Shown here piece by piece: positions 6,477 through 61,599 of a stretch of 61,599 nt of DNA. The first letter of the stretch is position 1; each line of letters opens with the position of its first letter. Made by a program: the position numbers and the translations under genes. Origin of the DNA: a virus; the UHGV virus genome UHGV-0127988; one strand, 5' to 3'. The notes under the pieces are model-generated. The model was not told the origin of the DNA and made no database searches. It saw nothing but the letters and a program-made list of their open reading frames with translations.

Positions 6477-6487
6477 GGGGCAAACGT

Positions 6488-23376: not shown

Positions 23377-23382
23377 GTGTGT

Positions 23383-23453
23383 TGTGGTTATAGCAACGCT
23401 CGGTCTAAAATCGAAACATACCCAATAAGCTGCGCAAGACGTGCGGCGATCCC
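23383..23453 (+). promoter_or_regulatory. Late promoter candidate (TTGTGG-N18-TAAAAT) plus a conserved leader motif, upstream of the lysis operon. Copy 1 of 3.
   Basis: Shares AGCAAC..AATCGAAAC..GCTGCGCAAGACGTGCGGCGATCCC with 53029-53084. The 25-mer is identical at 23429-23453 and 53060-53084. Confidence 0.5.
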
Positions 23454-23467
23454 TCAAGGAGTCGCGC

Positions 23468-46225: not shown

Positions 46226-46300
46226 TTCGTAACCCCTGTTTCTACAATCGCAACAAAGCGATCCGGGAGCGATTCCCGATGCATGCGGATATGTCAACCC
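46219..46300 (+). promoter_or_regulatory. Late promoter candidate (TTGCAT-N18-TACAAT) with a diverged leader motif upstream of terS. Copy 3.
   Basis: TGCATTTC, AATCGCAAC, GCGATCC, GCGATTCCC and CACATTATGA are shared with the capsid-upstream copy. Confidence 0.4.
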
Positions 46301-46313
46301 GCAAGGACACATT

Positions 46314-47096
46314 ATGAACAGGAAACAAACCAAGACGCCTACAGCAAAGGCCACAAAGCTATCAGCACGCGATAAACGCTTTGTGGACGAATATCTAATC
46401 GATTTGTCACCGGAACGGGCTGCACTTGCGGCCGGTTATAGCGCCACCGTTGCCCGAACGAAAGCCTACATGTGGGTCAGCAATGGTAAGGTGAAGCCTC
46501 TGGTCTACGCTGCGATCCTGGCTGGCATGGAGAAGCGCTCAGAGCGCACCAAAATCACCCAGGACATGGTGTTACAGCGGTACTGGATGATAGCCACCGC
46601 TAATCCGAACGAGCTGACACAGCTGCGCCGGACGTGCTGCCGTCACTGCTATGGTGTAGAGCATGAGTTTCAGTGGAAGGATGAGGCGGAGTTTAAGTCG
46701 GCGCTGGCCAGAGAAGCCGCCGCAGCCGCAGAAGAGGGTCGCCCTCCGCGAATTCTGAACGATTTAGGCGGGTATGGCTTTGATAGCTCTCTATCTCCAC
46801 ACGCCAAATGCCCGGAGTGTCACGGCGACGGCCACCTGAGCACCTACTTTCAGGACACCCGCAACCTTTCACCGGCAGCGCTGGCTCTATTCGCAGGCGT
46901 GAAGCAGTCGAAAGAGGGGCTGGAAGTAAAAATGCATGACCAGAAAGCCGCGCTCGATCAGATTGCGAGGCACCTGGGCATGTTCAATGATAAGCTGACA
47001 CTTAAAGGGGATGAGCAGAACCCATTGCAAGTTCTGCTCCAGCAGCTGCCCGGCGCGCTTATCACCCCAGTTAAGCAGGACAAAGAGGATACTTAG
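46314..47096 (+). CDS. Terminase small subunit
   Basis: RFVDEYLIDLSPERAALAAGYSA is typical of the terminase small subunit HTH region. Confidence 0.75.
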   Translation: MNRKQTKTPTAKATKLSARDKRFVDEYLIDLSPERAALAAGYSATVARTKAYMWVSNGKVKPLVYAAILAGMEKRSERTKITQDMVLQRYWMIATANPNELTQLRRTCCRHCYGVEHEFQWKDEAEFKSALAREAAAAAEEGRPPRILNDLGGYGFDSSLSPHAKCPECHGDGHLSTYFQDTRNLSPAALALFAGVKQSKEGLEVKMHDQKAALDQIARHLGMFNDKLTLKGDEQNPLQVLLQQLPGALITPVKQDKEDT

Positions 47097-47311
47097 TGTT
47101 TCGCGAGAGTGGACAGCCTATTCAGCTTTTTGGCGGTTTCAGGCCATTCGGCTTTGATGGACAGCGCCTGCGTGGCAAGTTCGACCACGCGGGAGGTGCC
47201 TTTCTGTTCCCACGTAAGGTAAGTCCGTCTGCTCACTCCCAGCTCTTCAGCTGCCCGTTCCTGCGACCATCCCAGGCCATTGCGCCAGAGTTTCAGTTCA
47301 AATCCGCCCAT
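47093..47311 (-). CDS. XRE-family HTH protein (72 aa) antisense between terS and terL
   Basis: GAGGAT box 8 nt before ATG. LWRNGLGWSQERAAEELGVSRRTYLTWEQ. Confidence 0.5.
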   Translation of the reverse strand: MGGFELKLWRNGLGWSQERAAEELGVSRRTYLTWEQKGTSRVVELATQALSIKAEWPETAKKLNRLSTLAKH

Positions 47312-47409
47312 ATTCGATATCCTCAAAGTGAAAGAAATGCACATGCCTCACCGCATTATAGCGGTTTTCTGTGCAATATCTTCACATCGTTGCTTTTCGA
47401 GGGGGCGCG

Positions 47410-49029
47410 ATGAGTTTGCAGGCAGCTAAACCCGGCTCAGTGCCGCTCGATTTCGTGCCATCGAATGATGACGAGCTGTTCCAGTGCCTCAGTGACCCAT
47501 ACTGGCGGCTGTGCTCCGGGCAGCTATACAAAATCAAGACCAAACCGCGCGATGAGTTCGGGGATGAGGATGAAAGCGAAGTTCGTATTGTGCCATTCAA
47601 GCCTAACCGGGCGCAGCGGAAGCTGCTGAAGAGACTGCACAAGCGCAATATCATCTTAAAGGCGCGCCAGCTGGGCTTCACGACGTTCATCGCCATCCTG
47701 TTTCTCGACTGTGCTTTGTTCGCCCCAGCCAATAACCCGACGACAGCGGCTATCGTCGCGCATAATCAGGACATGGCTGAGGAGATATTCAGGGACAAGG
47801 TGAAGTTCGGCTATGACAACCTGCCGGATGTTCTGCGTGCGGTGATGCCGCTGGTACGCGACCGCGCCGACGCGCTGGAATTCGCCCACAACGGCAGCAA
47901 GGTGAGCGTTGCTACCTCATTCCGTGGCGGTACGCTGACTCACCTGCACATTTCCGAGTTCGGTAAAATCTGCGCCAAGTTCCCTGACCGCGCCAATGAG
48001 GTAGTGACCGGCTCAATCCCTGCGGCTGAAATGGGCATGATTTTCATCGAATCCACCGCTGAAGGCCGGGAAGGTGAGTTCTTCATGATGTGCCAGCGGG
48101 CGCAGAAGATTGCAGCCCTGGGGCGCAGGCTCACGAACAAGGAATTCGCCTTCCACTTCTACCCCTGGTGGGAGGACATGCAGTACCGCATGGATCCGGA
48201 GCTGGTAGATATCTCGAAGACAGAGCACGAATATTTTGACGAGATAGAAGCCAAAATGGACACCATGATCGATATCGAACAGCGGGCATGGTGGGTGAGC
48301 ACGCGTGATAACGTCTATTCCGGCCAGGACGAGAAGATGTGGCAGGAATACCCCAGTTCGCCGGAAGAGGCTTTCCAGAAATCGACAGAGGGCTGCTACT
48401 ACACCAAACAGATGGTCAAGATGCGCAAGGAGAAGCGCATTACCACCGTGCCATATACGCCCGGCTATCCAGTCAACACGTTTTGGGACATTGGCAGCGG
48501 CGACGGAACGGCTATCTGGCTGCACCAGCACATCGGGCAGGAGCATCGTTTCATCGGCTTCATTGAGGGCTGGGACGAACCATACGGCTATTACGTCCGG
48601 GAGCTGGACAAGCTGGGTTACGTTTGGGGCACTGACTACCTGCCTCACGACGGCAACCATGTACGGCAGGGGCAGAATGCCAACCTGACACCGAAAGAAA
48701 TGCTGGAGAAGGAAGGCCGCCGCCGCATCGAGATCGTTGAGCGCGTCTCCGAGCTGCAGCACGGCATCCAGATAACCAGGAACATGCTGGCAACAGCCTG
48801 GATCGACAAGGACGCCTGTAAAGAGGGCATCGCTCATCTGGATAGCTACCGGAAAAAATACAATAACCGGATGCAGACATTCACCGACCAGCCAGAGAAA
48901 GACGACGGGCACAGTGAGGCCGCCGACGCATTACGTCAGTGGGCGCAGGTGTACGGTTCGGACCCGAACGCTGGCCGCCGCCGCACAAAGGCGAAACCGA
49001 GACGAAATACTTCGGGTATGGCTGTGTGA
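47410..49029 (+). CDS. Terminase large subunit
   Basis: GAGGGGG ribosome-binding site. Deviant Walker-A-like LKARQLGFTTF. Size and position fit. Confidence 0.75.
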   Translation: MSLQAAKPGSVPLDFVPSNDDELFQCLSDPYWRLCSGQLYKIKTKPRDEFGDEDESEVRIVPFKPNRAQRKLLKRLHKRNIILKARQLGFTTFIAILFLDCALFAPANNPTTAAIVAHNQDMAEEIFRDKVKFGYDNLPDVLRAVMPLVRDRADALEFAHNGSKVSVATSFRGGTLTHLHISEFGKICAKFPDRANEVVTGSIPAAEMGMIFIESTAEGREGEFFMMCQRAQKIAALGRRLTNKEFAFHFYPWWEDMQYRMDPELVDISKTEHEYFDEIEAKMDTMIDIEQRAWWVSTRDNVYSGQDEKMWQEYPSSPEEAFQKSTEGCYYTKQMVKMRKEKRITTVPYTPGYPVNTFWDIGSGDGTAIWLHQHIGQEHRFIGFIEGWDEPYGYYVRELDKLGYVWGTDYLPHDGNHVRQGQNANLTPKEMLEKEGRRRIEIVERVSELQHGIQITRNMLATAWIDKDACKEGIAHLDSYRKKYNNRMQTFTDQPEKDDGHSEAADALRQWAQVYGSDPNAGRRRTKAKPRRNTSGMAV

Positions 49030-49082
49030 TAAGTGTTGCTATACTGGCAACGCATAAGACATAAACGCAACAGAGGGCAATC

Positions 49083-49514
49083 ATGGCAGAGCACGTTTTA
49101 GACCTGACTCAGTACCATTTCGTGCATACGCGCGGGGATCTGACCATTTACGGTACATGGTACGGGGTCGAGCATCAGCCGTGCCTCGTTGTCGTTCCTA
49201 CTTACCGCATCGGCGCTGACCGCTGCCGCCCGCTCATTATCGATCTCGATGACGCATGGCAGTGGAACCCGGAAGACCCCCAGTCAATGCCGCAACTGAA
49301 CCGCGTCATGTGCATGGCCTTCCTCGATATGAACAACATGGACACCGGCAACGTGTTCGCCGCCATGAAGATAGTGACCCTCATTCACGACCACCTGGGC
49401 GACCTGATCGCTATCCCTCCCAAGCCGACAACCGGCGTCGTCGTCGCAGATGCATTCCGCACCGACCACGACACAGGGAAAACCCATCACTCTGAGGTAA
49501 TCGAACGTGTTTGA
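49083..49514 (+). CDS. Hypothetical protein (143 aa)
   Basis: ORF between terL and the portal gene. Confidence 0.5.
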   Translation: MAEHVLDLTQYHFVHTRGDLTIYGTWYGVEHQPCLVVVPTYRIGADRCRPLIIDLDDAWQWNPEDPQSMPQLNRVMCMAFLDMNNMDTGNVFAAMKIVTLIHDHLGDLIAIPPKPTTGVVVADAFRTDHDTGKTHHSEVIERV

Positions 49515-51849
49515 TAAACCAGATACGGGCTTTGACCTGCGCGACGCCAGACATGTGCCGCTCGATGACTTACCGGACGCAGCATACGCCAGCGAGGAAG
49601 AGCGCGGGAAACCCGACCATGAATTAGACCATCCCGATATGGTCAATCGCTATGCCCGTCTACTGGGAATATTCCAGGATGAGCTGGCCCGCCAGGCAGA
49701 TAACCGCCAGCAGCAGGCAAAAGACGCAGATTTCTACGATGGCATCCAGTGGCGTGAGCAGGATGCCGCAGCGCTGAGAGAACGCGGCCAGGTGCCTCTG
49801 GTATATAACGTCATCGCCACCAGCATCAACTGGATACTCGGTTCTGAGGCGAGAGGGCGGACGGACTGGAAGATTCTGCCGCGTCGCAAAGAGGCGGGGA
49901 AGGCTGCAGAGCGCAAGACCCAGCTCATGAAGTATCTGAGCGACGTCAACCGCACGCCATTCAACCGTAGCCGGGCATTCGCTGACTGCGTGAAGGTCGG
50001 CGTAGGCTGGATGGAGGAAGGCCTGCAGCAGCCTGAAGACGGCGAACCGGTCTATGACCGCTATGAGAGCTGGCGAAACATCCTGTGGGACAGCGCCTGT
50101 ACCGAAGATGACATTTCCGACGCCCGCTATGTGTTCCGCTTTAAGTGGGTGGACCTCGATGTAGCCGAAGCCATGTTCCCCGACCGCGCCGGGCTGCTGC
50201 GCCTGTGCGCCCGCGCCGCCAATGACTGGGAGATCGATGACTACGGCGACGACGCGTCAGACAGCCAGGAACGCCTCAACGAGACATCGCACTACCGCAA
50301 TGCCGTCACCACGTTTAAACGTGAGCGTGTCCGCATTATTGAAGCCTGGCACAAAGTCACCGAAGAAGTGGAGAAAATGCGCGGTGGTGACTTCAACGGC
50401 GAGATCTTCAACCCCGATGACCCGGCACCAGGCCACCAGGCGGATATTGACGCCCAGCGCGCTTACCCTGTCACTGTTCCCCGCGCCATGCGTATGCGCG
50501 TCTCGATATTCTGCGTCGGTGGCATGCTTTGGGATGGTCCAAGCCCATACCGGCACAACTCATTCCCGTTTACGCCAATCTGGTGCTATCGCCGCGACCG
50601 CGACAACCTGCCTTATGGCGTAATCCGCAACCTGCGCGACATGCAGGAGGACATCAATAAGCGTGCCAGTAAGGCGCTGCACATCATTTCCACGAACAAA
50701 ACCATCATGGAAGAGGGTGCAGTAGACGATATCGATGAATACCGGGAAGAGATTGCCCGCCCGGATGCCGTGATCGTCACGAAGCCTAACAAAAAGCTGG
50801 AGATTAACGCTAACCGTGAGTTAGCCCCGGCGCACCTGGAAATGATGAGCCGTTCTATCGGCATGATTCAGCAGATTTCCGGCGTAACCGATGAGAACCT
50901 GGGCCGCCAAACCAACGCGTCGAGCGGCAAGGCGATCACCGCGCGCCAGGAGCAGGGCGGACTGGCTACAACGCTCATCTTCGACAACCTGCGCTTTTCC
51001 GTACAGGTGCATGGTGAGAAGCTGCTTTCAGCAATCGAGCAGTTCTACAGCGAAGAGAAGCAGTTCCGCATCACGAACATGCGCAACAGCCCGGAATACA
51101 TCACCATCAACGATGGGGATCCGGACAACGATATCATCAGGACAAAGGCCGATTTCGTTATCGGTGAGGAAGACTGGCGCAATACCATCCGCAAGGCGCA
51201 GACCGAAGAGCTTTTCGGCCTGCTGCAGCAGCTGGCACCGGTAGCGCCGCAGCTGGCACTGGTCATGATGGATATTCTGGTCGAAGGGATGGATATCGCC
51301 AGCCGTGAAGAGCTGGTTAAGCGTATCCGCCAGGTCACTGGTATGCGCGACCCGGATGCCGAAGAGCCAACACCGGAAGAGATTGCCGCCGAGAAGGCCA
51401 AGCAGGCACAGGCGGAGCTGCAGCAACGGGCACAGCTGGCCGCCATTGCCAAAGACGAGGCAGACGCCGCGCTCAAACAGAGCAATGCGCAGAAAAACGC
51501 CGCGTCAGCTGGCAAAGAACAAGCCCAGGCTCAGCAGATCCTCGCGTCAATGGCCGGTCAGAACGTCAATACCCAAAAAGCTGCACTGGAAGCCGCACTT
51601 ATGGCGCTGTCACAGCCTGCCGCCGTTCCGGTCGCAGACAACATTCTCCACGAATCCAGCTTCCTCTCGCGAACAGAAGGCGAGGAAGAAGCCCGCCAGG
51701 CTGCAGTGATGCAGGCCGAGCAGCAACAGCAAGCCGCTGCCGAGCAGCAGGCTATGCAGGAGCAACAGGCCCAGCAGGAACAGGCCGCCCAGCAGCAACA
51801 GCAGGAACAGCAGCCCGCTGGCCTGCCTCAACCACAACCACAGCAGTGA
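49507..51849 (+). CDS. Portal protein (780 aa) with a Gln/Ala-rich C-terminal extension
   Basis: Position after terL, size, and a FYDGIQW-type motif. C-terminal low-complexity helical region. Confidence 0.7.
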   Translation: MFDKPDTGFDLRDARHVPLDDLPDAAYASEEERGKPDHELDHPDMVNRYARLLGIFQDELARQADNRQQQAKDADFYDGIQWREQDAAALRERGQVPLVYNVIATSINWILGSEARGRTDWKILPRRKEAGKAAERKTQLMKYLSDVNRTPFNRSRAFADCVKVGVGWMEEGLQQPEDGEPVYDRYESWRNILWDSACTEDDISDARYVFRFKWVDLDVAEAMFPDRAGLLRLCARAANDWEIDDYGDDASDSQERLNETSHYRNAVTTFKRERVRIIEAWHKVTEEVEKMRGGDFNGEIFNPDDPAPGHQADIDAQRAYPVTVPRAMRMRVSIFCVGGMLWDGPSPYRHNSFPFTPIWCYRRDRDNLPYGVIRNLRDMQEDINKRASKALHIISTNKTIMEEGAVDDIDEYREEIARPDAVIVTKPNKKLEINANRELAPAHLEMMSRSIGMIQQISGVTDENLGRQTNASSGKAITARQEQGGLATTLIFDNLRFSVQVHGEKLLSAIEQFYSEEKQFRITNMRNSPEYITINDGDPDNDIIRTKADFVIGEEDWRNTIRKAQTEELFGLLQQLAPVAPQLALVMMDILVEGMDIASREELVKRIRQVTGMRDPDAEEPTPEEIAAEKAKQAQAELQQRAQLAAIAKDEADAALKQSNAQKNAASAGKEQAQAQQILASMAGQNVNTQKAALEAALMALSQPAAVPVADNILHESSFLSRTEGEEEARQAAVMQAEQQQQAAAEQQAMQEQQAQQEQAAQQQQQEQQPAGLPQPQPQQ

Positions 51850-51856
51850 GGAACTT

Positions 51857-52795
51857 ATGGCTGATATCGATGAAAGCATTCTGGCTAACCTGACAGAAGA
51901 AGAGCGCGCCGCCCTGGAAGCGCCGGATAGTGATTCCGAGCACCAGGAGGTAGATTTGGATCAGGTTGCCGCCCAGCAGCAACAGCAGCAGGAAGAAGAG
52001 CAGGACACCGATCCGGACAAGAATCCAGATCCGGAGAAAGACGGGAAGCCGGAAGAGCGGCAGCAGGAAGAGCAGCAGCAGGAAGAGCAGCAGGACCAAC
52101 AGGAGCAGCAGAAAGCCCAGCAGCCTGAAGCGCAGGTGCCACAGCCGGTATTTAAGCCGGTGGCAACCGAAGAGCTGAAGGCTAAGTATGACGATATCGA
52201 TAAGCGAGAAGAAGAGCTGATCGAGAAGTTCGAAGAGGGAGAGCTTACCACCCGCGAATATAATGCCCAGCTGCGCGCCCTGAACAAAGAGCGCGGCGAT
52301 CTGGACTGGCTGCAGCGCAAAGACGAGCTGAACCGCGAGAGCGTGGAGCAGATGGTAGTGCGTCAGTGGGCCGATGACGTTAACGCATTCCTTCCAAAAC
52401 ACCCGGAAATCAGCGAAAACGAAGAAAACTGGAACAGCTTTGACGTGGTTCTTCGTCAGGTGACTGCCGTCCGGATGGCGGAGGGTAAGCCATATGGCAC
52501 CCCTGAGCTTGAGCGCGCGTATCGCATTTGGGCCGATGAGCGCGGAATTGCACCTCCGAAACCGGCGAGCGAAAATCCGAAGCAGGAGCAGGCGGCCCAG
52601 CAGCAGCCGAAGCAGCAGCAAAAGGCGCTGGATATTCCCCCGACACTGGCGAAGGTTCCCGCCGCCGCGCCGGAAGATACCGACGATGGCAAGTTCGCAG
52701 CACTCGACCGCCTGGCTGAAAGCGATCCTCAGAAGTACCAGGAGACTATCGCCCGTATGAGCGCCGACGAATACGACGCCTATTCAAGTCGCTAA
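51857..52795 (+). CDS. Scaffolding protein (acidic, Glu/Gln repeat-rich)
   Basis: Between portal and capsid genes. EEQQQ repeats. Confidence 0.6.
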   Translation: MADIDESILANLTEEERAALEAPDSDSEHQEVDLDQVAAQQQQQQEEEQDTDPDKNPDPEKDGKPEERQQEEQQQEEQQDQQEQQKAQQPEAQVPQPVFKPVATEELKAKYDDIDKREEELIEKFEEGELTTREYNAQLRALNKERGDLDWLQRKDELNRESVEQMVVRQWADDVNAFLPKHPEISENEENWNSFDVVLRQVTAVRMAEGKPYGTPELERAYRIWADERGIAPPKPASENPKQEQAAQQQPKQQQKALDIPPTLAKVPAAAPEDTDDGKFAALDRLAESDPQKYQETIARMSADEYDAYSSR

Positions 52796-52805
52796 GGAGA
52801 GCAGC

Positions 52806-53015
52806 GTGGGGGCACTTAAAATCGATTTGCGTGATGGTGACGTTCTCAGAATTGGCGATACCACCGTGCGCATGGTGTACAAAGCTGGCAGGCGGTGCGG
52901 TCTGGTCATCGACGCGCCAGATGAAGTTATTATTCACTGCGATAAGCGCCCCGACGCAAAAGAAGGGCAACAGGAGGTTGACATTCAAAGCAAAAACGCC
53001 ATTGGCATGACATGA
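52806..53015 (+). CDS. Hypothetical protein (69 aa)
   Basis: ORF with a GGAG ribosome-binding site. Confidence 0.4.
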   Translation: MGALKIDLRDGDVLRIGDTTVRMVYKAGRRCGLVIDAPDEVIIHCDKRPDAKEGQQEVDIQSKNAIGMT

Positions 53016-53019
53016 GTGT

Positions 53020-53084
53020 TTGCATTTCAGCAACAGTCATTCGATAATCGAAACGTAATGCTGCGCAAGACGTGCGGCGATCCC
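53020..53084 (+). promoter_or_regulatory. Late promoter candidate (TTGCAT-N17-GATAAT) plus a conserved leader motif upstream of the capsid gene. Copy 2.
   Basis: Near-consensus sigma70 hexamers. Leader 25-mer is identical to 23429-23453. Followed by a CGTGCGG...CCGCACG 7-bp stem. Confidence 0.55.
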
Positions 53085-53113
53085 GACACACCGCACGTTC
53101 TTGAGGGCACATT

Positions 53114-54217
53114 ATGAGCCAAACCACTATCACCTGGGGCAATGATGTCCAGGCGCAGAAAAAATGGTCGGCGCGTCTCTACGCGGAAACGCTGGGGAAG
53201 AGCTACTGGGAAAAATTCATCGGTAAAGGTGATGACGCAGTAATCCAGCGCAAGACCGAACTCGATGCTGACGTGGGCGACCGCATTAGCTTCGATCTCT
53301 CCGTCCAGTTACGCGGCGGCCCGGTTTCCGGCGACCAGCGTCTGGAAGGCAACGAAGAACAGCTGAAGTTCTTCTCCGACGAAATCATCATTGACCAGCT
53401 GCGTAAGTCTGTTTCCTGCGGCGGCAAGATGACCCGCAAGCGTACCGCTCACGATCTGCGTGACGTCGCGAAAAAACGCCTATCCGAATGGTGGGGCCAG
53501 TACATCGATCAGATGTTCTTCATCTACCTGTCGGGCACTCGCGGCATGAACGAGAACTATGAATCGTTCCCGGCCAACTACTCCGGTCACGCAGGAAACC
53601 CGATCCGCACCCCGGACGGCCAGCACCTGCTGTTCGGTGGTTCCGCCACCAGCAAAGCCACCCTGACTGCTGACGACAAAATGACTCGCCTGCTGATTGA
53701 GAAAGCGAGCCATAAGGCAGCGATGATGCGTGCGCTGGACCCGCGTAGCGCCAACCTGCTCCCGATCCCTATCGGCGGCAGCGACCACTACGTGCTGGTG
53801 ATGAACCCGACCCAGGCGTTTGACCTGCGTACCGAAGCCGGTGCGGGCTGGCTGGATATCCAGAAAGCCGCCGCTGCTGCTGAAGGTAAAGCCAACGTCA
53901 TCTTCAAAGGTGGCCTGGGCATGATCGATGACATTGTGCTGCACAAGCACCGCGACGTTATCCGCTTCAGCGACTACGGCGCAGCGTCCAACGTCAAAGC
54001 CTCCCGCGCGCTCTTCCTGGGCCGCCAGGCTGGTGTGGTTGCTTATGGCACCACCAAAGGCCTGAACTTCACCTGGAAAGAGAAGCTGGCTGACTACGAC
54101 AACGAGCCGTCTGTTGCCGCCGGTACCATCATCGGCATCAGCAAGACCCGTTTCAACAAGCGCGATTTCGGCGTGGTGGCAATCGACACCGCAGCGAAAG
54201 ACCCGAACGCAGCATAA
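53114..54217 (+). CDS. Major capsid protein
   Basis: GAGGG ribosome-binding site. 367 aa, immediately after the scaffold gene. Confidence 0.65.
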   Translation: MSQTTITWGNDVQAQKKWSARLYAETLGKSYWEKFIGKGDDAVIQRKTELDADVGDRISFDLSVQLRGGPVSGDQRLEGNEEQLKFFSDEIIIDQLRKSVSCGGKMTRKRTAHDLRDVAKKRLSEWWGQYIDQMFFIYLSGTRGMNENYESFPANYSGHAGNPIRTPDGQHLLFGGSATSKATLTADDKMTRLLIEKASHKAAMMRALDPRSANLLPIPIGGSDHYVLVMNPTQAFDLRTEAGAGWLDIQKAAAAAEGKANVIFKGGLGMIDDIVLHKHRDVIRFSDYGAASNVKASRALFLGRQAGVVAYGTTKGLNFTWKEKLADYDNEPSVAAGTIIGISKTRFNKRDFGVVAIDTAAKDPNAA

Positions 54218-54229
54218 GGGGACCACCAC

Positions 54230-54694
54230 ATGGCACTGTTTCAATCTCCGTGGGCAACCGGCATGCTGTTGCCCGCGCGTCCGCAGACCGCATTTGCGAC
54301 GCACAGCCAGCTGTACATCATGGATATTCCTGCAGCTGGTATCGCTGCGAACGATATTCTGGAGCTGGCGATCCTTCCTCCGTATGCCCGCATCGTTGAT
54401 GCGAAGCTGATCACGGTGGGAAGCCTGGGCGCGGCGACCGTTGATGTTGGCCTTATGTCCGGCCTCACCGGTGAGCCGACCAACGAAGACGGTTCCGCCC
54501 GTACCGTTGGCACCGAGCTGTTCGCAGCTGCTGCGCTGACTGCTGAAGTCACCCAGCTGGCGAAGTCGGCCGCCCTGCTGGTCGAACCGACGCAGAAAGA
54601 CCGCTCCATCGGCGTGAAGTTCTCCGCAGCTGTCACCGCCGGTGCAGGCAAGAAGATCGGTCTGCTGCTCTCCATCGCGCAGTACCAGCAGTAA
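54230..54694 (+). CDS. Head-associated protein (decoration or auxiliary; 154 aa)
   Basis: Immediately after the capsid gene. Confidence 0.45.
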   Translation: MALFQSPWATGMLLPARPQTAFATHSQLYIMDIPAAGIAANDILELAILPPYARIVDAKLITVGSLGAATVDVGLMSGLTGEPTNEDGSARTVGTELFAAAALTAEVTQLAKSAALLVEPTQKDRSIGVKFSAAVTAGAGKKIGLLLSIAQYQQ

Positions 54695-54745
54695 TCACCA
54701 GCAGGGGCGAAAGCCCCTGTCTTTTCATCGTTCCGAGGAATATCC

Positions 54746-55399
54746 ATGAAAATTGAATGCATCCTCCATCGCCCTGGCGGTTCCCGCGTACAGCTCGAAG
54801 CCCCGCGCGTTGAGTACCATTTCAAGCCGAGCGAGTCCGATCCGCGCCATATCGCTGATGTGGTCGAAGCCTCTCACATTTCCACGCTGCTGCGCATCAC
54901 TGAGGGCTATCGCTCCGCTGAAGGCGAGCAGGAAGAAGAGAAGCCGCGCGTTAAAATCGACCTGAAAACCAGCGCACTTCATAGCCCGGTCTACAATATC
55001 CCCGGTGGCACCATTGAGCTGGCTGACGTTGTGGAAATGGCACAGAAGGATTCCGGCAAGACCCCGGACGAATGGAACGAGCTGGACGACGAAGACCGTA
55101 CCGAGTGGATCGACCAGGTGCTGCTGGAGCTGCAGGCCACGGTACCGACCGCCCCGGCGGTTGTCGCTGGCACTCCTGCCGCTGCTGAAGACGGCGAAAA
55201 CGAAGACAGCGCCGATGATTCTGCCGACGCTGGTCATAACGGCGGCGATGTCGGTGAGCAGTCCTCTAACGGCCCGGACCAGATCGACACCGAAGACGAG
55301 CTGGAAACCCTGCGCGCTGAATACAAGAAAGTGTTCAAGCGTAACCCGGCCAAGAGCATGACCGCCGCCAACCTGAAGCGCGCAATCAGCGAAGCGTAA
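54746..55399 (+). CDS. Acidic virion-associated protein (217 aa)
   Basis: ORF in the structural operon. Asp/Glu-rich C-terminal half. Confidence 0.45.
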   Translation: MKIECILHRPGGSRVQLEAPRVEYHFKPSESDPRHIADVVEASHISTLLRITEGYRSAEGEQEEEKPRVKIDLKTSALHSPVYNIPGGTIELADVVEMAQKDSGKTPDEWNELDDEDRTEWIDQVLLELQATVPTAPAVVAGTPAAAEDGENEDSADDSADAGHNGGDVGEQSSNGPDQIDTEDELETLRAEYKKVFKRNPAKSMTAANLKRAISEA

Positions 55400-55408
55400 G
55401 GGGAAACC

Positions 55409-55996
55409 ATGATCGATGCTTGCAAAGTTATCTCCGCTGACGGCCTGGACCGTCTGAACGGCCTTATCGCTGCTGCTGTCACTGACGGCTTTTCCCCGCA
55501 TGGCTCGATAATCCCGATCTCCAACGGCGATGTGAGCATCGTCATGGTTGATACCGGCACGCCGGTCGATGCCTGCAAAGTCATTAAGGCTGTGGGTCTG
55601 GTGCGTTTCAACCAGGCGCTTGCCGATGCCATTAACGATGGGTTTTACCCGGTAGGTCGTGGCGAGACTGGACCAGGGAATACATTCTTCATGGTGCTGG
55701 CAAAGGGCGGCGATACCGGTGGCGGTGGAGCGGTAACAGTCACCAGCGACCAAATCACCGACGCCTCAACAGTTGGCAAGAATGTACTGAAGGCAGCAGA
55801 TGCAGCCGCAGCGCGCGCAGCCATCGGCGCGGGGATTGGTAACTCGAACCTGGTGATCGGCACCACCGCCACCCAGGCGAAAGCAGGTAACTGGAAGCCA
55901 GCAGCAATCGACGTAACAGACTCCGGCGCGTTTGGGCGTCAGCTGCTGCAGGCCGCTAATCAGGCCGCTGCTAAAACCCTGCTGGGGATCTCCTGA
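55409..55996 (+). CDS. Virion protein with an internal tandem duplication and a C-terminal tail-fibre-N-terminus-like motif
   Basis: Repeats MIDACKVISADGLDRLNGLIAAAVTDGF / PVDACKVIKAVGLVRFNQALADAINDGF. C-terminal ITDASTVGKNVLKAADAAAARAAIGAG. Confidence 0.45.
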   Translation: MIDACKVISADGLDRLNGLIAAAVTDGFSPHGSIIPISNGDVSIVMVDTGTPVDACKVIKAVGLVRFNQALADAINDGFYPVGRGETGPGNTFFMVLAKGGDTGGGGAVTVTSDQITDASTVGKNVLKAADAAAARAAIGAGIGNSNLVIGTTATQAKAGNWKPAAIDVTDSGAFGRQLLQAANQAAAKTLLGIS

Positions 55997-56724
55997 TGAA
56001 GACCGCGAAAGAGCTTCTGGACAGGGCGGGAATTCTCCTGCTCGATGAGGGCTACGTTCGCTGGGATTTGCCGGAGCTGCTGAAGTGGCTGAATGATGGC
56101 CTGCTGGCTATTGTGACGCAGAAGCCCAGCGCGACGGCGGTAACTGTCACGCTGCCGCTGGCCGAAGGCACCTATCAGAGCATCCCGTCGAAATATAACG
56201 GCATTCTCCGCGTGGTGCGAAATATGCGCGGCGATAAGTCGGACCGGATGCCGCGTAAGATCGTCTCTGTGGTCGGCGTCGATGCGCTCGATGCCGTCAA
56301 TCCGTCCTGGCATGACCCTGATTCCGTGCGGTACCGCCAGCAGGCGAAGCACATCGTTTTCGATGAGGCTAACCCGCGCGCATTCTATGTCTATCCCGGC
56401 AACGACGGCACAGGCTACATCGAGGCGGTTTTGTCGGAGATCCCGCAGGCTATCGTCCTGGCTGATGGCTCTGACGCTCACAGCCTCGAAAGCTACGACC
56501 TGCCGCTCACCGTCAATGACATCTACTCGAACGCGCTGCTGTATTTCGTCCTCCACCGCGCTTACGCGAAGGATGCCCAGGTAGCAGGTGCCGCAGCACG
56601 CGCCGCAGCCTGGTATCAGCAGTACGCTAACGAACTGGGTATTCAGGTCACGGTCGAAACCAACATGTCGCCTAACGTCAAATCCGGCGTTGGTCGCGGT
56701 GCTGTGGGGGTAACGCAGCAATGA
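55996..56724 (+). CDS. Hypothetical virion protein (adaptor candidate; 242 aa)
   Basis: Coupled ORF. Confidence 0.45.
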   Translation: MKTAKELLDRAGILLLDEGYVRWDLPELLKWLNDGLLAIVTQKPSATAVTVTLPLAEGTYQSIPSKYNGILRVVRNMRGDKSDRMPRKIVSVVGVDALDAVNPSWHDPDSVRYRQQAKHIVFDEANPRAFYVYPGNDGTGYIEAVLSEIPQAIVLADGSDAHSLESYDLPLTVNDIYSNALLYFVLHRAYAKDAQVAGAAARAAAWYQQYANELGIQVTVETNMSPNVKSGVGRGAVGVTQQ

Positions 56725-57338
56725 TGCCTCCCAACAGACCGATTGAAGACCTGTATCCGAAAGTCCTCATGTACGCGCCGGGTTGCCCGGAGCCGCTGGC
56801 CGTCGATCACCTTCGCGACGCCGCAATCACGTTATGTGAGCGCACGCGCTGCTGGCGCGACGTGGACGAATTCGAGACAGACGGCGAAAGCCGTGTCGTT
56901 ATCCCGGCTATCGTGCCGGGCACAGCACTTTATGAGATCGAAAAGGCCTGGTTCGAAGAGCAGGAGCTGGAGCCGACTGGCTACGCAGAAGATATGCTGT
57001 TTCACGACAATGGCTATCCACGCCGGTTCTCGCAGCAGCTGCCGGATACCCTTCTGCTGATGCCTGCAGGCAGTCCTGGAACGGTTCGCCTCTCGATGTG
57101 GCTGAAACCGTCGCAGACTGCTGACGAGCTGCCGCAGTTCTTTTTTGAGCAGTTCGCGCAGGCGCTGGCGGATGGTGCCCTGTCCACACTCCTGCTTATC
57201 CCGAACCAGCCATTCACTAACCCGCAGATGGCGGCGGTGTTCGATTCCAGGTTCACCGCAATGCTTGACCGGAATTTTGCCTACAACATGCGAGGGCAGC
57301 AGCGTGCCAGAAAGCGCACCAAAGCCAGCTTTTTCTGA
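56721..57338 (+). CDS. Hypothetical virion protein (205 aa)
   Basis: Coupled ORF. Confidence 0.45.
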   Translation: MMPPNRPIEDLYPKVLMYAPGCPEPLAVDHLRDAAITLCERTRCWRDVDEFETDGESRVVIPAIVPGTALYEIEKAWFEEQELEPTGYAEDMLFHDNGYPRRFSQQLPDTLLLMPAGSPGTVRLSMWLKPSQTADELPQFFFEQFAQALADGALSTLLLIPNQPFTNPQMAAVFDSRFTAMLDRNFAYNMRGQQRARKRTKASFF

Positions 57339-57417
57339 GTACCAGGGCCGCCCGATATTTCCGGGCAATCTCCCCGTATCTCAGTATGATGCCGTCCTGC
57401 ATATCGGTAACGGCATT

Positions 57418-59835
57418 ATGGAGCGCCAGGTAAAACGGGCGGAAGAGACGCACGCATGGGCTTTCGATGCCAAAAGCTGGATCGAGCCGAGCGAGCGCAT
57501 TACCGCCTGCGCCGCGCGCACGGGAGACGGTCCGCTGACCATCACGAACCTGCAATTCACTGATGCCGCCATTGTTATCTGGCTGGCAGGTGGTGGCGAT
57601 GATGCCCGCCAGCTGGTGATCGTGGAGTTCATGACCAGCGAGTGCCGCGTACTGCAGTATCAATTCGCGTGCTTCACGCACGGCACTGCGCCGATGATCG
57701 TTCGGGTAGAGCTACTGGGGCCGCCGGTGGTTCTGGTAGGCTTCATTCATCAGGACAAGCAGCCTGAACCTGTTCAGCTGCCTGAAATCACCGTCACTCC
57801 GTCTTCTCTGGCATTCCCGCTCACCGGCGTGAACCAGGTTTCAGCGCCCCAGGTGCTGACCATGACGAATACGGGTGAAGTCCCGGTATTTCTGCGTGCT
57901 ATCAACGTCGCTGGAGCCTTCCACCAGAAGAACGGCAGCGAAGAAATTCTCCAGCCAGGTGATTCATATCCCCTGTCGGTGACATTCGCGCCGAAGGCTG
58001 CAGGTGATTTTGCTGGTTCGATCTCCATCGATATCAACGACGGCGGCAAGAAGTACGCTACGTTCACCGGCACCGCAGAAATCGGCACACGCATCACTAC
58101 CAGCGGGAACCAGCTGATTACCGGCGCTGGCGAAAACTTCCGCCTGCGCTCTATCAACTGGTTTGGTGCAGAAACTGATGTTTACGTGCCGCATGGGCTT
58201 TGGGCGCGCAGCTATAAGGCCATCATCGACCAGATTAAGGCGATGGGCTTTAACTCCGTCCGCCTGCCTTTCAGTGGCGATCTGCTGACCGCCGGGCGAG
58301 GCGTGTCCGCTGGGGTCATCAATTACGACCTGAACCCGGCGTTGGTAGGCAAGACGGCTTTTGAAGTCCTGGCCGCCATCATCGCGTACTGCGAAGAGAA
58401 AGAAATTTACGTTATCCTTGACCACCACCGCCGCACAGCCGGGAGTGGCGCTGATGGTTCACCGGTCAGTGACACGTACCCCCTGGCAACGTGGATCGCC
58501 AACTGGAAGGCGCTGGCGCAGCAGTTCGGTGAAAACAAATATGTGCTGGGTGCTGACCTTCATAATGAGCCGTATTCTCTGCCCTGGCAGGTATGGGCTG
58601 ATTATGCCGAGCAATGCGGCAATACCATCCATCAGGTTGCGCCTCACTGGCTAATTTTTGTTGAGGGTGTCGGTTCGTTTAACGGCGAAAGCTACTGGTG
58701 GGGCGGGCAGCTCGCTGGCGTGGCGTCTCGACCGGTTAAGCTGAACCAGGCGAACCGCGTCGTCTACTCGCCTCACGAATACGGCCAGTCGGTAGGTCAG
58801 CAATCCTGGCTTGCCTACGACGGCGAGGCGCTTCCGGAAAACTGGCCCATGAATCTCTATGAGGTATGGCGCTCACACTGGGGCTTTATCGTTGAGAACG
58901 GCATTGCGCCGGTCTGGATTGGCGAGTTCGGCGGTAAGTTCGGCACCAATGGTGATGGAGCGCTGGGGATTGCCCCGCACGCGGAATACGAGTGCCAGTG
59001 GCTTTATCACCTTGAGCTGTACATGAACGGCGATTTCGACGGCTACGGCGATATCGATCTTCCCGCTGGCAGCGAAGGTATCAGCTTCTGTTACTGGGCA
59101 TTCAACCCGAACAGCAGCGACACAGGCGGCATAGTCCAGGACGACTGGACGACCGCACAGACTTTCAAACTCAGACTACTGGATCCTATTATGGCTGGTG
59201 TATCCCTCGACTATCTGACTTCGCTCAACCCGATTTCAGCGTCGGAAGTTGCCGATGCTGATCTGCTGCTGGTCAACCATAACGGCACTGACTACAGCCT
59301 GCGCGTAAGCGAGCTTATGGCTCTCACACGCAACAAGACCTTTGAGCCTGGTGTGGTTCACTGGTTCGCAACCAACGTTAACCCGAACGCCAAATACAGC
59401 GGTCAGACCTGGATCCTGGTTCCTGGACTGGAGAAGACGGTACGACTGGCTAAAGCGGACGGCAGCGACCTGCTATCTACCGGCGGCGCTGACAGCGTAA
59501 CCATCGCCCGCGCGAATCTCCCGGCAGCACAGGTAGCGATTAGCGGCACCGCGCAGAATAAAGACCTGGGTACGAAAACCACGTCGAACAACGGCCAGCA
59601 TACCCACACATGGGGTACTGGCGTGCAGAAACAGGGTGGTAGCGATAACCCTGTCGCCGGTTCAGCAGAAGGCGGATTTGGCACAACGTCGGCTGCTGGT
59701 GCGCACGATCATACCGTCGCTCTCGGCGCGCACGACCACTCAGTTACTGGTCAAACAGAGAACTTGGGTAGCGGTCAATCACTGGGCGTGAAGAACGCCT
59801 ACGTTGTTCTGGCCGCCTGGTATCGCCTTTCTTAA
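57418..59835 (+). CDS. Tail fibre with an Ig-like region, a GH5 (cellulase-family) glycoside hydrolase domain and a His-box C-terminal tip
   Basis: FRLRSINWFGAETDVYVPHGLW, LHNEP (acid/base Glu) and IGEFGG (nucleophile Glu) are GH5 signatures. C-terminal HTHTW/HDHT/HDHS boxes. The ORF-track start at 57145 overlaps the upstream gene and was rejected. Confidence 0.65.
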   Translation: MERQVKRAEETHAWAFDAKSWIEPSERITACAARTGDGPLTITNLQFTDAAIVIWLAGGGDDARQLVIVEFMTSECRVLQYQFACFTHGTAPMIVRVELLGPPVVLVGFIHQDKQPEPVQLPEITVTPSSLAFPLTGVNQVSAPQVLTMTNTGEVPVFLRAINVAGAFHQKNGSEEILQPGDSYPLSVTFAPKAAGDFAGSISIDINDGGKKYATFTGTAEIGTRITTSGNQLITGAGENFRLRSINWFGAETDVYVPHGLWARSYKAIIDQIKAMGFNSVRLPFSGDLLTAGRGVSAGVINYDLNPALVGKTAFEVLAAIIAYCEEKEIYVILDHHRRTAGSGADGSPVSDTYPLATWIANWKALAQQFGENKYVLGADLHNEPYSLPWQVWADYAEQCGNTIHQVAPHWLIFVEGVGSFNGESYWWGGQLAGVASRPVKLNQANRVVYSPHEYGQSVGQQSWLAYDGEALPENWPMNLYEVWRSHWGFIVENGIAPVWIGEFGGKFGTNGDGALGIAPHAEYECQWLYHLELYMNGDFDGYGDIDLPAGSEGISFCYWAFNPNSSDTGGIVQDDWTTAQTFKLRLLDPIMAGVSLDYLTSLNPISASEVADADLLLVNHNGTDYSLRVSELMALTRNKTFEPGVVHWFATNVNPNAKYSGQTWILVPGLEKTVRLAKADGSDLLSTGGADSVTIARANLPAAQVAISGTAQNKDLGTKTTSNNGQHTHTWGTGVQKQGGSDNPVAGSAEGGFGTTSAAGAHDHTVALGAHDHSVTGQTENLGSGQSLGVKNAYVVLAAWYRLS

Positions 59836-59850
59836 AAGGAAATTTGAATC

Positions 59851-61599
59851 ATGACCAACTTATCTGGCGCAACCACTGCCGTCTTTATCATTAGTCTTTC
59901 AGCTGCGCTGGAAGTCCCTGTTAATGTCGCATGGGAAACGAAGGATGGCACCGCTAAATCAGGAACAGATTACGAGGCTGCAAGCGGATCTGTGACCTTC
60001 GAAGCTGGCGATACGCAGAAGCAAATTCAGGTTACTGTCTATGGGCGTGAGACCGTGGATGCCGCCACTCGCAAATTCAGCATCCTTCTTTATCCGCCGG
60101 AAAACGCAATTCTCGACCAGACGCTAACTGAAGTTGAAATTCAGGTTACTGACAGCGAAGGCGTGTCGGTTACATCGCTGGTAGTAGCAACAGGTCCCCG
60201 AGGACTGAAAGGCGATCCAGGCCTTAGTGCTTATGAGTTAGCAAAAATTCATGGCTATACTGGTACGCTTCAAGAATGGCTTGAGAACCAGAATCCGGTC
60301 GCCGCAATGCTACAAAAGACGATTAGGGTATCTGAATCAAGTATTCCTATGCTTCCAGATGTGGAGGAAAGGAAAAATAAAATATTGGCTTTCGATAACA
60401 ACGGAAGTCCGATGGTAACATTACCAGAGTCTGGATCTGCTGCTGATGTTCTTATTGAACTTAGATCAAGCTCAGGTGCTACGAAGGTGTACAAAAATAA
60501 ATCACCGCTGGAAAGAATTATCCGCGCATCAATCTTCGAATACCTGACAGAAGCAGACCAGCAAACGCTAATGACCTCTCCCGGTGCTGATGTAATAGCT
60601 GATTATGCATTGAAACAAGCTATTGATGATGGCGTGATGGTGCTGGACATTCCGTGGAACGTCGGTGCGCTCAATTTCGGGCTTGATCCAGCAACACTTC
60701 CATTGGGCTTCTCGCTAATAGGATGGGGGTGTCGTCGACCTTACACTATAGCAGGCGATAGTAGCTTTATTAATTGTGGTGTCGTCATCCGCGTAGCAGC
60801 TGGTGCAAGCTTTCCATTTTATTCAACAAGCAGGCATGTATTCCGGGATATTGTTTTTGATGGCCGAGATAAAACAACGTACCTTTTTTATTCGCCGAGT
60901 ACTGCAACCCAGTTCAACGGCACCCGACTTGAGGGGTGCGGATTTTATCGGTTTGCGATCGGGATTGGCTGGGCTTCAGGAGGAACAGCCAGGTACATCG
61001 GAACAATGAAAGCATATTTCTGTTCAATATCCGGAAACGGGGATGGAGTCAGGAATTTAATAGACTCCATGATGTTTGGTTGCACAATCAATGCTAATGA
61101 TCGAGGAGTGGCCCTTACCGGTGGGGCAAACAATAACTTTTTCGGAGGATGCCGGAACGAATGGAACACCGGCGATAACTGGTATGCGTACCAGGCGGGG
61201 GAGAACCAGATTTGCGGTGAGCTTTGCGACAGGGCGGGAAGGGGTGGTGTAGTTGCCGCTAAGGGGGCATCATGGATTTTAAACGGCGTTAACGTCCGGC
61301 GCAGTGGTGCTAATCAGACTGTGGGGGATGATTATTCTGCAAACTTTATTATTATAGACGACGGTAAAATCATACTTTCAGGGGTCAGAACTGGTGTCGG
61401 TGCGAATGACAGCGGTGATGGGGGGACAATCTCGCCATCCTACAACGTATCGGCTCTTGGCTCTGGCGGGGGGACTTTGCTGGTTTCCGGAAGTGATATG
61501 ACTGGTTTTGTTACTTCGGCAATTAACAAGAAGGCGGCCACGTTAAATAAGTCGATAACCGGCAACCTCGGTATGGACGATGATGTAAATGTTGGCATG
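59851..61599 (+). CDS. Tailspike (partial, 5' end only; no stop in window). N-terminal Calx-beta-like domain, collagen-like GxxG/SAYELA motif, parallel beta-helix (pectate-lyase-like).
   Basis: AAAGGAAA ribosome-binding site. TKDGTAKSGTDYEAASGSVTFEAGDTQKQIQV is the Calx-beta signature. GPRGLKGDPGLSAYELA. Repetitive NG/GG beta-helix rungs. Open to the window end. Confidence 0.65.
   Translation, partial: MTNLSGATTAVFIISLSAALEVPVNVAWETKDGTAKSGTDYEAASGSVTFEAGDTQKQIQVTVYGRETVDAATRKFSILLYPPENAILDQTLTEVEIQVTDSEGVSVTSLVVATGPRGLKGDPGLSAYELAKIHGYTGTLQEWLENQNPVAAMLQKTIRVSESSIPMLPDVEERKNKILAFDNNGSPMVTLPESGSAADVLIELRSSSGATKVYKNKSPLERIIRASIFEYLTEADQQTLMTSPGADVIADYALKQAIDDGVMVLDIPWNVGALNFGLDPATLPLGFSLIGWGCRRPYTIAGDSSFINCGVVIRVAAGASFPFYSTSRHVFRDIVFDGRDKTTYLFYSPSTATQFNGTRLEGCGFYRFAIGIGWASGGTARYIGTMKAYFCSISGNGDGVRNLIDSMMFGCTINANDRGVALTGGANNNFFGGCRNEWNTGDNWYAYQAGENQICGELCDRAGRGGVVAAKGASWILNGVNVRRSGANQTVGDDYSANFIIIDDGKIILSGVRTGVGANDSGDGGTISPSYNVSALGSGGGTLLVSGSDMTGFVTSAINKKAATLNKSITGNLGMDDDVNVGM

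Follow-up and report, generated by a model that had tools for sequence, protein, structure and literature searches.

In the 61,599-nt genome of the virus UHGV-0127988, referred to below as the window, the major capsid gene and the endolysin gene are each preceded by a transcribed leader that can form two mutually exclusive pairings with common nucleotides, one of which lies over the Shine-Dalgarno (SD) sequence and the AUG. Both pairings have comparative support, which is weaker for the local hairpin. The leader co-varies with the downstream ribosome-binding site and translational control is therefore indicated; we consider it somewhat better than an even bet (probability roughly 0.55) that the leader element is a translational switch which is off by default. 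The window is about 96% identical to the Klebsiella phages LASTA, SJM3, SopranoGao and ZX1 (genus Lastavirus). An earlier reading of the letters alone (the sequence-only reading) had proposed that late genes are preceded by sigma70-like promoters and a conserved leader within the transcript, which our analysis supports, and had likened the leader to qut pause sites or put-like antitermination RNAs, a comparison that is weighed below.

The 25-mer GCTGCGCAAGACGTGCGGCGATCCC had been described as identical upstream of both genes. A mismatch search and shuffles confirmed this: exactly two copies are present, at 23429-23453 before the endolysin and at 53060-53084 before the capsid gene (0 expected), and no further copy with up to 3 mismatches was found in the window or in 100 shuffles. 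In the capsid leader, positions 53060-53078 (plus strand) form the hairpin GCUGCGC-AAGAC-GUGCGGC, worth -10.0 kcal/mol alone, and its 13-nt core GCGCAAGACGUGC lies at 53063-53075. The same hairpin occupies 23429-23447 (plus strand; core 23432-23444) in the endolysin leader. The core consensus is G-C-G-C-A-N-G-A-(N)-G-U-G-C, with 10 invariant columns in 27 aligned leaders. Its stem has 4 bp, including an invariant G.U pair, and is extended to 7 bp in the window; loops read A-N-G-A-(N), rarely U-G-G-A-N, and none has G first. In the leader alignment both sequence and length vary between the hairpin and CGNAAC, the block that follows the promoter -10, and the hairpin begins at a variable distance from the promoter (about +9 to +20) while keeping its relation to the AUG. 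Over the 131-nt capsid leader region, LASTA, SJM3 and ZX1 are 100% identical, as against about 96% over the flanking 3 kb. Additional cores with up to 2 mismatches occurred in the window at chance frequency (46 versus 39). A search of the whole window against Rfam at gathering thresholds gave no match, and one of 52950-53200 at E ≤ 10 gave two chance-level matches.

In the minimum free energy (MFE) fold of every capsid and endolysin leader, the loop and 3′ arm of the hairpin are paired in or beside the SD/AUG region. For the capsid gene (SD GAGGG, 53103-53107), the ribosome-binding region at 53091-53116 (plus strand) pairs back to the leader: CCGCACGUUCUUG (53091-53103), just 5′ of the SD, pairs with CAAGACGUGCGG, and a basal helix joins CAUUAUG (53110-53116), with the start codon inside, to CGUAAUG (53054-53060). 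The MFE of this leader is -27.7 kcal/mol (z -3.5). For the endolysin gene, whose SD AAGGAG (23456-23461) and start codon (23468-23470) lie within 23456-23472 (plus strand), CGCAUGUC (23465-23472), which includes the AUG, pairs with GACGUGCG (23438-23445) of the hairpin element. The SD is located apically in the same stem, and the MFE is -25.3 kcal/mol (z -2.8).

The element is kept at homologous positions in related phages, as seen both with leader searches and at loci chosen by their capsid protein. Sensitive blastn with nothing but the short leaders as queries recovered homologous intergenic regions in the Erwinia phages PEp14 and Stean, Serratia phage Parlo and Pseudomonas phage Itty13. Viral, genome and metagenome collections were also scanned with a pattern; most of its matches were chance ones, and those retained had promoter context and a capsid or endolysin start downstream. 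After this filter there remained 22 distinct sequences of capsid type and 11 of endolysin type (18 and 10 distinct leaders after trimming). Through the capsid protein, more distant relatives were found in which the 13-nt core precedes the capsid gene: Skulduggery, Ralstonia phage GP4, Ochrobactrum phage POI1126, Bcep22, Agrobacterium phage Atu_ph08 and Sinorhizobium phage PBC5. In PBC5 and Atu_ph08 the core is also found, on the other strand, before a divergently transcribed endolysin gene. The capsid-selected sample comprised 80 viral contigs chosen by capsid-protein profile alone, at 55-71% identity. A strict motif, GCGC-NN-GA-(N)-GTGC, was present 36-76 nt upstream of the start codon in 60 of these 80 loci, and most of the others carry variants of it. 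The lysis cassette of Bcep22 was rejected as a carrier, since it begins with a pinholin and has the promoter class described below without the hairpin. The sequences kept from the pattern scan include one from a bacterial chromosome: a 1.5-Mb Pantoea leporis contig (L032, NZ_JALMEU010000001.1) contains an endolysin-type promoter and hairpin leader (match 7692-7730, minus strand), which points to a related prophage integrated there. The dyad of this promoter, GTTGTTAAAACAACAAC, is perfectly palindromic.

The pairing of hairpin segment and start region is specific to each leader. The best duplex between the hairpin segment and downstream sequence ended between -8 and +9 of the AUG in 33/33 leaders, and about 21 of these duplexes were better than shuffles (p ≤ 0.05); for 60 distinct capsid-selected leaders the corresponding proportion was 68%, with a median shuffle p of 0.0125. 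When downstream partners were swapped among 12 diverse leaders, cognate pairs averaged -18.6 kcal/mol versus -13.2 kcal/mol for non-cognate pairs, a difference matched by 0/20000 permutations. The same test on the 60 capsid-selected leaders gave -13.6 versus -9.8 (0/5000 permutations). Covariation was tested on a MAFFT alignment built without structural information. The two long-range helices were 91.8% paired in this alignment, as compared with 20-61% when the 3′ partners were slid by 1-3 columns. Three long-range pairs change on both sides (column 13-81, for example, is UA in 7 cases and CG in 6), and 0/500 shuffles reached the long-range covariation score. This co-variation spans phages of alpha-, beta- and gamma-proteobacteria. 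Compensatory pairing is seen in POI1126 (CAUGACGUG with CACGUCAUG), PBC5 (CAUGAGUGC with GCACUCAUG), GP4 (GGAGUGUG with CACACUCC-C-AUG) and Bcep22 (GGAUGUG with CACAUCC-AUG), and the segments likewise pair in Atu_ph08 (CAUGAGUG with CACUCAUG) and Skulduggery (CUGGAUGUGCGG with CCGCAUAUCUGG).

Comparative evidence for the local hairpin comes from its two outer pairs, which alternate among U.G, C-G, G-C and U-A (covariation score 0.170 versus 0.122), and from rare core variants in the capsid-selected sample that keep the stem by a one-sided change (GCGU..GUGC, GCAC..GUGC, GCGC..GCGC and GCGC..GUGU). The invariant U of the G.U pair has G as its partner in one fold and A in the other, and this dual demand fits a bistable design. 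Loop residues G7 and A8 (and, mostly, A5) stay constant even in leaders whose closed fold leaves the loop unpaired, such as the Itty13 and Parlo capsid leaders; this fits sequence-specific recognition of the loop.

Forcing the local hairpin to form cost 3-14 kcal/mol relative to the closed fold (7.2 kcal/mol for the endolysin leader); because of this cost, the closed, start-site-occluding fold is the predicted ground state, and it would be the repressing one. Ranking the capsid start against all SD-preceded ATG and GTG sites was uninformative, as these lie mostly inside coding sequence, and annotated LASTA starts were used instead. The capsid ribosome-binding site has an opening energy of 16.1 kcal/mol and ranks 4th of 50 LASTA gene starts (mean 9.4, standard deviation 3.65 kcal/mol), and the endolysin start of the window requires 14.5 kcal/mol. 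Some of the other high-ranking genes overlap the end of a preceding open reading frame (ORF), as judged from coordinates, and may be translationally coupled. The genes behind the remaining two promoters of the class, terS and the genes after a fourth promoter, are among the most open (3.2 and 5.1 kcal/mol in the window; 3.3 and 7.4 in LASTA). Roughly 90-250 nt of non-coding RNA precede the capsid and endolysin starts (98 nt and ~250 nt). The strong occlusion of the capsid start argues for timed opening over a passive feature. Endolysin leaders also open with a conserved unpaired C/A-rich stretch (23416-23428 in the window; likewise in Stean, PEp14, Parlo, where it reads ACACACACAC, L013 and L018); this stretch looks like a ribosome standby site. 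In capsid leaders it is the apical loops that are A/C-rich.

Our model for these observations is a bistable 5′ untranslated region in which the 13-nt hairpin, GCGC-ANGA(N)-GUGC, would compete with the long-range SD/AUG helix. The closed fold would block 30S binding and thereby set translation to off as the default. The hairpin is expected to be transcribed 20-50 nt ahead of its competitor, so that a factor binding it as it emerges could keep the ribosome-binding site free and turn translation on. If the switch reading holds, a trans-acting opener is likely. One possible opener would be a phage CsrA-like protein made from the upstream terS-portal-scaffold operon, in which case synthesis of capsid and endolysin would be delayed until earlier late proteins are present. 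The bistable layer would be restricted to the capsid and endolysin leaders.

Several observations weigh against a switch. A closed fold favoured by 3-14 kcal/mol means that opening needs a strong binder or kinetic trapping, and it is odd for the most highly expressed gene to be off by default. The invariance of the core could be explained by three-way pairing constraints, with no protein involved. The covariation score of the local hairpin was reached by 17/500 shuffles; its four core pairs never vary, and its support consists of the two outer pairs and the one-sided variants. An alternative is a constitutive cis structure in which the closed helix shields the mRNA 5′ end from RNase E, fixes a damped rate of translation, or does both, with ribosomes entering through C/A-rich standby segments, the hairpin incidental and its invariance a product of overlapping pairing. 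We regard this as unlikely, if well worth keeping in mind. It is favoured by the strong preference for the closed fold in every leader, by possible standby sites in the unpaired start of endolysin leaders and in the A/C-rich apical loops of capsid leaders, and by hairpins whose core pairs never vary and which occur in phages lacking a CsrA-like gene. However, double changes in the outer pairs and stem-preserving one-sided variants are unexpected if the closed fold alone mattered, as is invariance of the loop G-A, and mostly of the first A, where these are unpaired in that fold. Occlusion of the capsid start by -25 to -42 kcal/mol is also hard to square with the capsid output that a phage needs.

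Readings in which the element acts on transcription or as DNA fare worse. The 13-bp core, at about +10 to +30, might be an operator bound as double-stranded DNA by a phage repressor or activator, which would act as a roadblock or from downstream of the start, with the RNA pairings as by-products; this is improbable. Its sequence is near-invariant rather than merely structure-conserving, it is a near-palindrome, and a different DNA dyad is plainly in use at these promoters. Nonetheless, none of the 27 core-motif leaders repairs the palindrome mismatch at the G.U position, which is altered only in rare variants elsewhere, a DNA site does not impose position-by-position co-variation on a partner 20-50 nt downstream, and it is the relation to the AUG, not the distance from the promoter, that is kept. 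The proposal of the sequence-only reading, a qut-like pause or loading site or a put- or nut-like RNA that makes RNA polymerase termination-resistant, is harder still to sustain. Conserved sequence does lie directly 3′ of the -10 and inside the transcript, five or six U follow the capsid hairpin in Parlo and PEp14, and a terminator-like hairpin and T-run at 54701-54730 (plus strand) closes the short capsid unit (the capsid gene and ORF 54230-54694), at a position equivalent to an annotated terminator in Bcep22. But the initially transcribed region has no conserved -10-like pause element (TANNNT-like hexamer), the U-run is not conserved (GCGAUCC in the window, UCAAUG in L014), and a single hairpin of 4-7 bp, in a leader that is otherwise variable or paired with the ribosome-binding site, differs from put, with its two stem-loops in ~65-70 nt. 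No loop has the leading G of a boxB GNRA-like pentaloop, and no boxA-like block is conserved. The long operons start from the terS and fourth promoters, where the hairpin is missing, and no terminator separates the promoter from the first gene. Over 46000-61599, terminator-like sites are about as frequent as expected by chance (16 versus 14.5). Neither would antitermination require co-variation with the ribosome-binding site, and no Q-like or N-like protein was recognized among ~20 small or regulatory ORFs scanned with Pfam and/or PHROGs. Least probable of all, to the point of being barely credible, is a very small metabolite- or ion-sensing riboswitch coupling late translation to host physiology. 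Such a device would account for bistability with an SD-sequestering alternative and for invariant loop nucleotides; yet only ~13 nt are conserved, linker length and sequence vary, and no Rfam riboswitch matched at E ≤ 10.

Three further candidate roles were set aside. An antisense or small RNA partner elsewhere in the window was rejected because minus-strand matches to the core occur at chance frequency. A leader attenuator or terminator would involve a U-run after the hairpin, but this run is not a conserved feature: Parlo, PEp14 and Itty13 alone have it. A leader peptide starting at the AUG of AUGAC loops was discarded as well: neither its frame nor its stop position is consistent, an SD is lacking, and loops of the AAGAC type offer no AUG.

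For the translational switch, the most concrete candidate opener is a diverged CsrA-like protein, and this is the weakest step of the model, especially for the window. The gene (69 aa; 52806-53015, plus strand) ends 5 nt before the capsid -35 and occupies the same place in PEp14, Itty13, Parlo, Skulduggery and Bcep22. The best PDB matches of the window protein are CsrA chains (E ~0.1), and its orthologues in Itty13 (29.8 bits), Parlo (30.4 bits) and Bcep22 (32.3 bits) exceed the Pfam CsrA threshold. The AGGAU and AGGA loops of Bcep22, BcepIL02 and many metagenomic relatives match the canonical CsrA site with GGA in the loop. GGA loops occur in relatives such as Bcep22 (AGGAU), Skulduggery (UGGAU) and the Parlo endolysin leader (UGGAC), and in about 30 of 72 capsid-selected loci. 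Among these 72 loci, a CsrA-like ORF lies upstream in 27/30 with a GGA loop versus 22/42 with a non-GGA loop (Fisher p = 0.0008, or 0.013 at 90% de-replication, statistics that ignore phylogeny), and the two states alternate among close relatives within one clade. Phages of the F116/H66 type were uninformative as a test, their CsrA-like gene not being beside the capsid gene.

Other findings count against the CsrA link. Arg44 (E. coli numbering) is essential for RNA binding by CsrA; the aligned residue is Cys in the window protein and R, G, K, T or L in relatives, and the residue at this position showed no correlation with loop sequence. The window protein scores 16 bits against the 27-bit threshold of Pfam CsrA (PF02599), and both window loops read AAGAC and have no GGA. 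The association between GGA loops and CsrA-like genes falls to p = 0.06 at 85% de-replication, and the hairpin is present with no detectable CsrA-like gene in PBC5, Atu_ph08, POI1126 and 20 metagenomic loci. We therefore think it doubtful that the protein encoded at 52806-53015 is the opener in the window phage. A broader scenario, which we rate as unlikely, would make the CsrA-like "morons" of Bcep22-like podophages their own late translational activators rather than accessories for manipulating the host. By binding the A-N-G-A hairpin while capsid and endolysin leaders are being transcribed, they would keep the start site free and so time head assembly and lysis; in phages whose hosts have a CsrA of their own, this Klebsiella phage among them, drift of the loop (from GGA to AGA or UGA) and of the protein (which would have lost Arg44) would have produced a separate specificity, insulated from the host regulator. 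Phage CsrA homologues have been treated as unexplained "moron" genes, and Burkholderia hosts have no chromosomal csrA (PMC9144972, PMC7366521).

The promoters in front of these leaders belong, by their sequence, to a class of four sigma70-type late promoters, those of lysis, terS, the portal region and capsid. All share the layout GTGTT(T)GC-N6/7-GCAAC over the -35 and spacer, followed by the -10 and CGNAAC. Conservation had been said to begin at the -10; it instead spans the -35, a dyad reaching into the spacer, the -10 and CGNAAC. The capsid promoter (53018-53055, plus strand) has -35 TTGCAT at 53020-53025, -10 GATAAT at 53043-53048 and CGAAAC at 53049-53054, with a predicted +1 at ~53053-53055; its dyad GTTTGCATTTCAGCAAC (53018-53034) encloses the -35, and its layout recurs in PEp14, Itty13, Parlo and metagenomic relatives. 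At the endolysin promoter of the lysis cassette (23381-23418, plus strand; dyad GTTGTGGTTATAGCAAC, 23381-23397), the elements are TTGTGG (23382-23387), TAAAAT (23406-23411) and CGAAAC (23412-23417), and the layout is kept in Stean, PEp14, Parlo, Bcep22 and metagenomic relatives. The terS promoter (46213-46255, plus strand) consists of TTGCAT (46220-46225), TACAAT (46243-46248) and CGCAAC (46249-46254). It is kept in Parlo and PEp14, including a common 18-mer, a block containing GTTTCTACAATCGCAAC, and shares with the capsid promoter the exact 16-mer TGAGTGTTTGCATTTC over the -35. The fourth promoter (49033-49071, plus strand), which reads GTGTTGCTATACTGGCAAC-N8-CATAAA-CGCAAC, with CATAAA at the -10 position (49060-49065), CGCAAC at 49066-49071 and the dyad GTTGCTATACTGGCAAC at 49035-49051, lies just past terL and before ORF 49083-49514 and the portal gene. 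Its leader has no hairpin and is short and very open (opening energy ~3 kcal/mol), and the promoter is found at the same place in PEp14 (L204 4241-4295).

Scores for these promoters are well separated from background. A weight matrix trained on 24 promoters from non-Lastavirus relatives only gave 47.6 bits for the capsid, 35.6 for the endolysin, 32.2 for the terS and 23.4 for the fourth promoter, as compared with a shuffle maximum of 12.2 bits. In a generic consensus scan the capsid and terS promoters scored 9/12 with sigma70-type -35/-10 spacing; the scan made no call at the endolysin promoter, which has the weak -35 TTGTGG, although TTGTGG-18-TAAAAT is kept in relatives despite this weakness. 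Spacing between -35 and -10 is constant across 29 aligned promoters, and AATCGMAAC occurs three times, each time immediately 3′ of a proposed -10 (TAAAAT, TACAAT or GATAAT).

Each of the four promoters has its -35 overlapped by the dyad GTTGC-N7-GCAAC. Seven copies of this 17-bp sequence are present in the window versus 0.3 expected: perfect copies start at 6460, 19710, 29728, 37660, 42169, 49035 and 51965, and imperfect ones at 23381, 34847, 40700, 46218 and 53018. Some copies occur where no promoter fits, for example directly 5′ of an SD at 6460 and 40700. Its halves alter symmetrically in relatives (GTTTGC/GCAAAC; GTTGTT/AACAAC). At capsid-type promoters the dyad is nested in a longer inverted repeat (53005-53041 in the window; about -45 to -14 in L124, L166, L014, L028, L021 and L003) with a fold of -12 to -19 kcal/mol, whose outer arms vary between phages yet stay complementary (ATGCAGTG..CACTGCAT versus ATCCAGTG..CACTGGAT), an arrangement suggestive of a hairpin, either in RNA that reads through from the CsrA-like gene or in extruded DNA. 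The dyad itself could act as a regulator's operator (centre near -29), form an RNA hairpin when transcripts read through it, or do both. Because it overlaps all four -35s and recurs in the genome, a protein-operator layer at the promoter, which the sequence-only reading discounted, is plausible, and if late transcription is regulated, the dyad is a likelier site for it than the leader. Pfam and PHROGs scans of candidate regulators for a dyad-binding protein gave generic helix-turn-helix (HTH), anti-repressor and replication matches only. At the start of an acyltransferase-like gene (6449-6500, ATG 6488), the SD region is inside the dyad copy at 6460 (GTTGCTAAAAGGGCAAC); this start has the highest opening energy, 19.1 kcal/mol, of the 50 annotated LASTA starts.

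The promoter is thus common to four late units and the leader element to two only. Upstream of terS, where a diverged copy of the whole element had been proposed, the promoter is indeed shared; the 25-mer and the 13-nt hairpin are missing, and the terS leader's own fold is not significant (z -0.7). In relatives, terS leaders carry a different conserved 5′ hairpin (GCGAUCCGG...). They are also GGA-rich, with ~2-3 GGA per 60-70 nt (window 46255-46313; Parlo L205 2396-2458; PEp14 L206 781-815 and L204 1-32), and GGAGUCAA(C/U) is common to the PEp14 and Parlo leaders. These leaders could be canonical targets of host CsrA or of a phage CsrA-like protein. The CAT of the terS -35 TTGCAT (46224-46226, minus strand) supplies an in-frame ATG to ORF 45959-46354, which runs divergently on the minus strand, and by coordinates it lies roughly where LASTA gp27 starts; on that estimate, the terS promoter and the beginning of a leftward small-gene cluster would overlap.

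The class of mechanism proposed here is known from Mu com/mom, lambda cIII and CsrA-controlled leaders. As in mom, a phage late leader would be off by default and controlled post-transcriptionally, with the start sequestered in a stem and an adjacent hairpin as the proposed handle for a small phage protein. Unlike mom, the window element has no zinc-finger Com homologue and no sequence similarity to that system, its hairpin and inhibitory helix share nucleotides, making the folds mutually exclusive, and it serves two unlinked genes in many genera, where activation is our proposal. Lambda cIII likewise has two exclusive leader folds with the SD/AUG occluded or exposed. The cIII folds, however, are close in energy and are set by temperature, Mg and RNase III, whereas the closed fold is favoured here by 3-14 kcal/mol, and there is no sequence relationship. 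CsrA/RsmA leaders resemble the element in having a short hairpin with an A-N-G-A loop near the SD, and a CsrA-family gene adjoins it; they differ in that the window loops are AAGAC and the adjacent protein, at most a candidate binder, is sub-threshold and lacks Arg44. The closest sub-case is ymdA, which CsrA activates by opening an SD-sequestering hairpin. Lambdoid qut and HK022 put share the placement of conserved, initially transcribed sequence 3′ of a late-promoter -10, but the pause element, the two-stem put architecture and, among the ~20 candidates, a recognizable Q gene are absent here. In the MS2 and PP7 coat operators and the T4 operators (gene 32, regA, gene 43), short specific hairpins at or near the start codon also allow a phage protein to control translation. 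Those hairpins contain the start site and binding represses; here the hairpin excludes the start and binding would be expected to activate.

If this model is correct, translation is the level at which a large and widespread group of temperate podophages times its capsid and its lysis enzyme, the two late products of greatest consequence; the group includes Lastavirus, Pavtokvirus, Parlovirus, Lessievirus and Ralstonia, Pseudomonas and rhizobial relatives. It would offer a testable function for phage CsrA homologues (PMC9144972, PMC7366521) and possibly a handle on the latent period of LASTA and SJM3, which at 80 min is unusually long (PMC10052179). The 13-nt motif and its start-site complement would form a compact, portable, off-by-default translational module, and the motif can help to locate capsid and lysis gene starts when phages of this group are annotated. 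In the literature on the motif, phage CsrA and Lastavirus or Bcep22-like phages we found no published description of the element, and the LASTA/SJM3 paper gives an unrelated PHIRE consensus only (PMC10052179). The RNA family, its use on both the capsid and the lysis gene, and its wide distribution seem not to have been described.

The window is a member of the Bcep22-like podophage group (~61 kb, with a giant DarB-like gene); the phage is a Lastavirus, that is, a Bcep22-like temperate podophage. The DarB-like gene (ORF 9618-23216, 4532 aa) is followed, directly before the endolysin promoter, by an intrinsic terminator at 23344-23377, which together with 54701-54730 makes up the two convincing intrinsic terminators of the window. 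Pfam agreed with the gene names endolysin, terS and capsid given previously: ORF 23468-24040 encodes a muramidase (N-acetylmuramidase; the endolysin) and is followed by an Rz spanin, ORF 46314-47096 the terminase small subunit (Terminase_2), and ORF 53114-54217 the major capsid protein (Phage_capsid_3). A P22-type portal is encoded by ORF 49507-51849 (Pfam). LASTA and SJM3 were reported to have a truncated integrase and to behave as virulent phages (PMC10052179). The window encodes a full-length tyrosine integrase of 421 aa (25956-27221, minus strand; Pfam) with arm-binding, central and catalytic domains, and since it is complete, a temperate lifestyle may have been retained. Within the late operon, antisense between terS and terL, a small HTH_3 protein (47093-47344, minus strand; Pfam E = 1.7e-6; PHROG 6962) is a possible candidate for a late-region regulator. 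Its ORF overlaps ORF 47096-47413 on the plus strand; the antisense ORF is annotated in LASTA and PEp14, and the overlapping sense ORF in Parlo.

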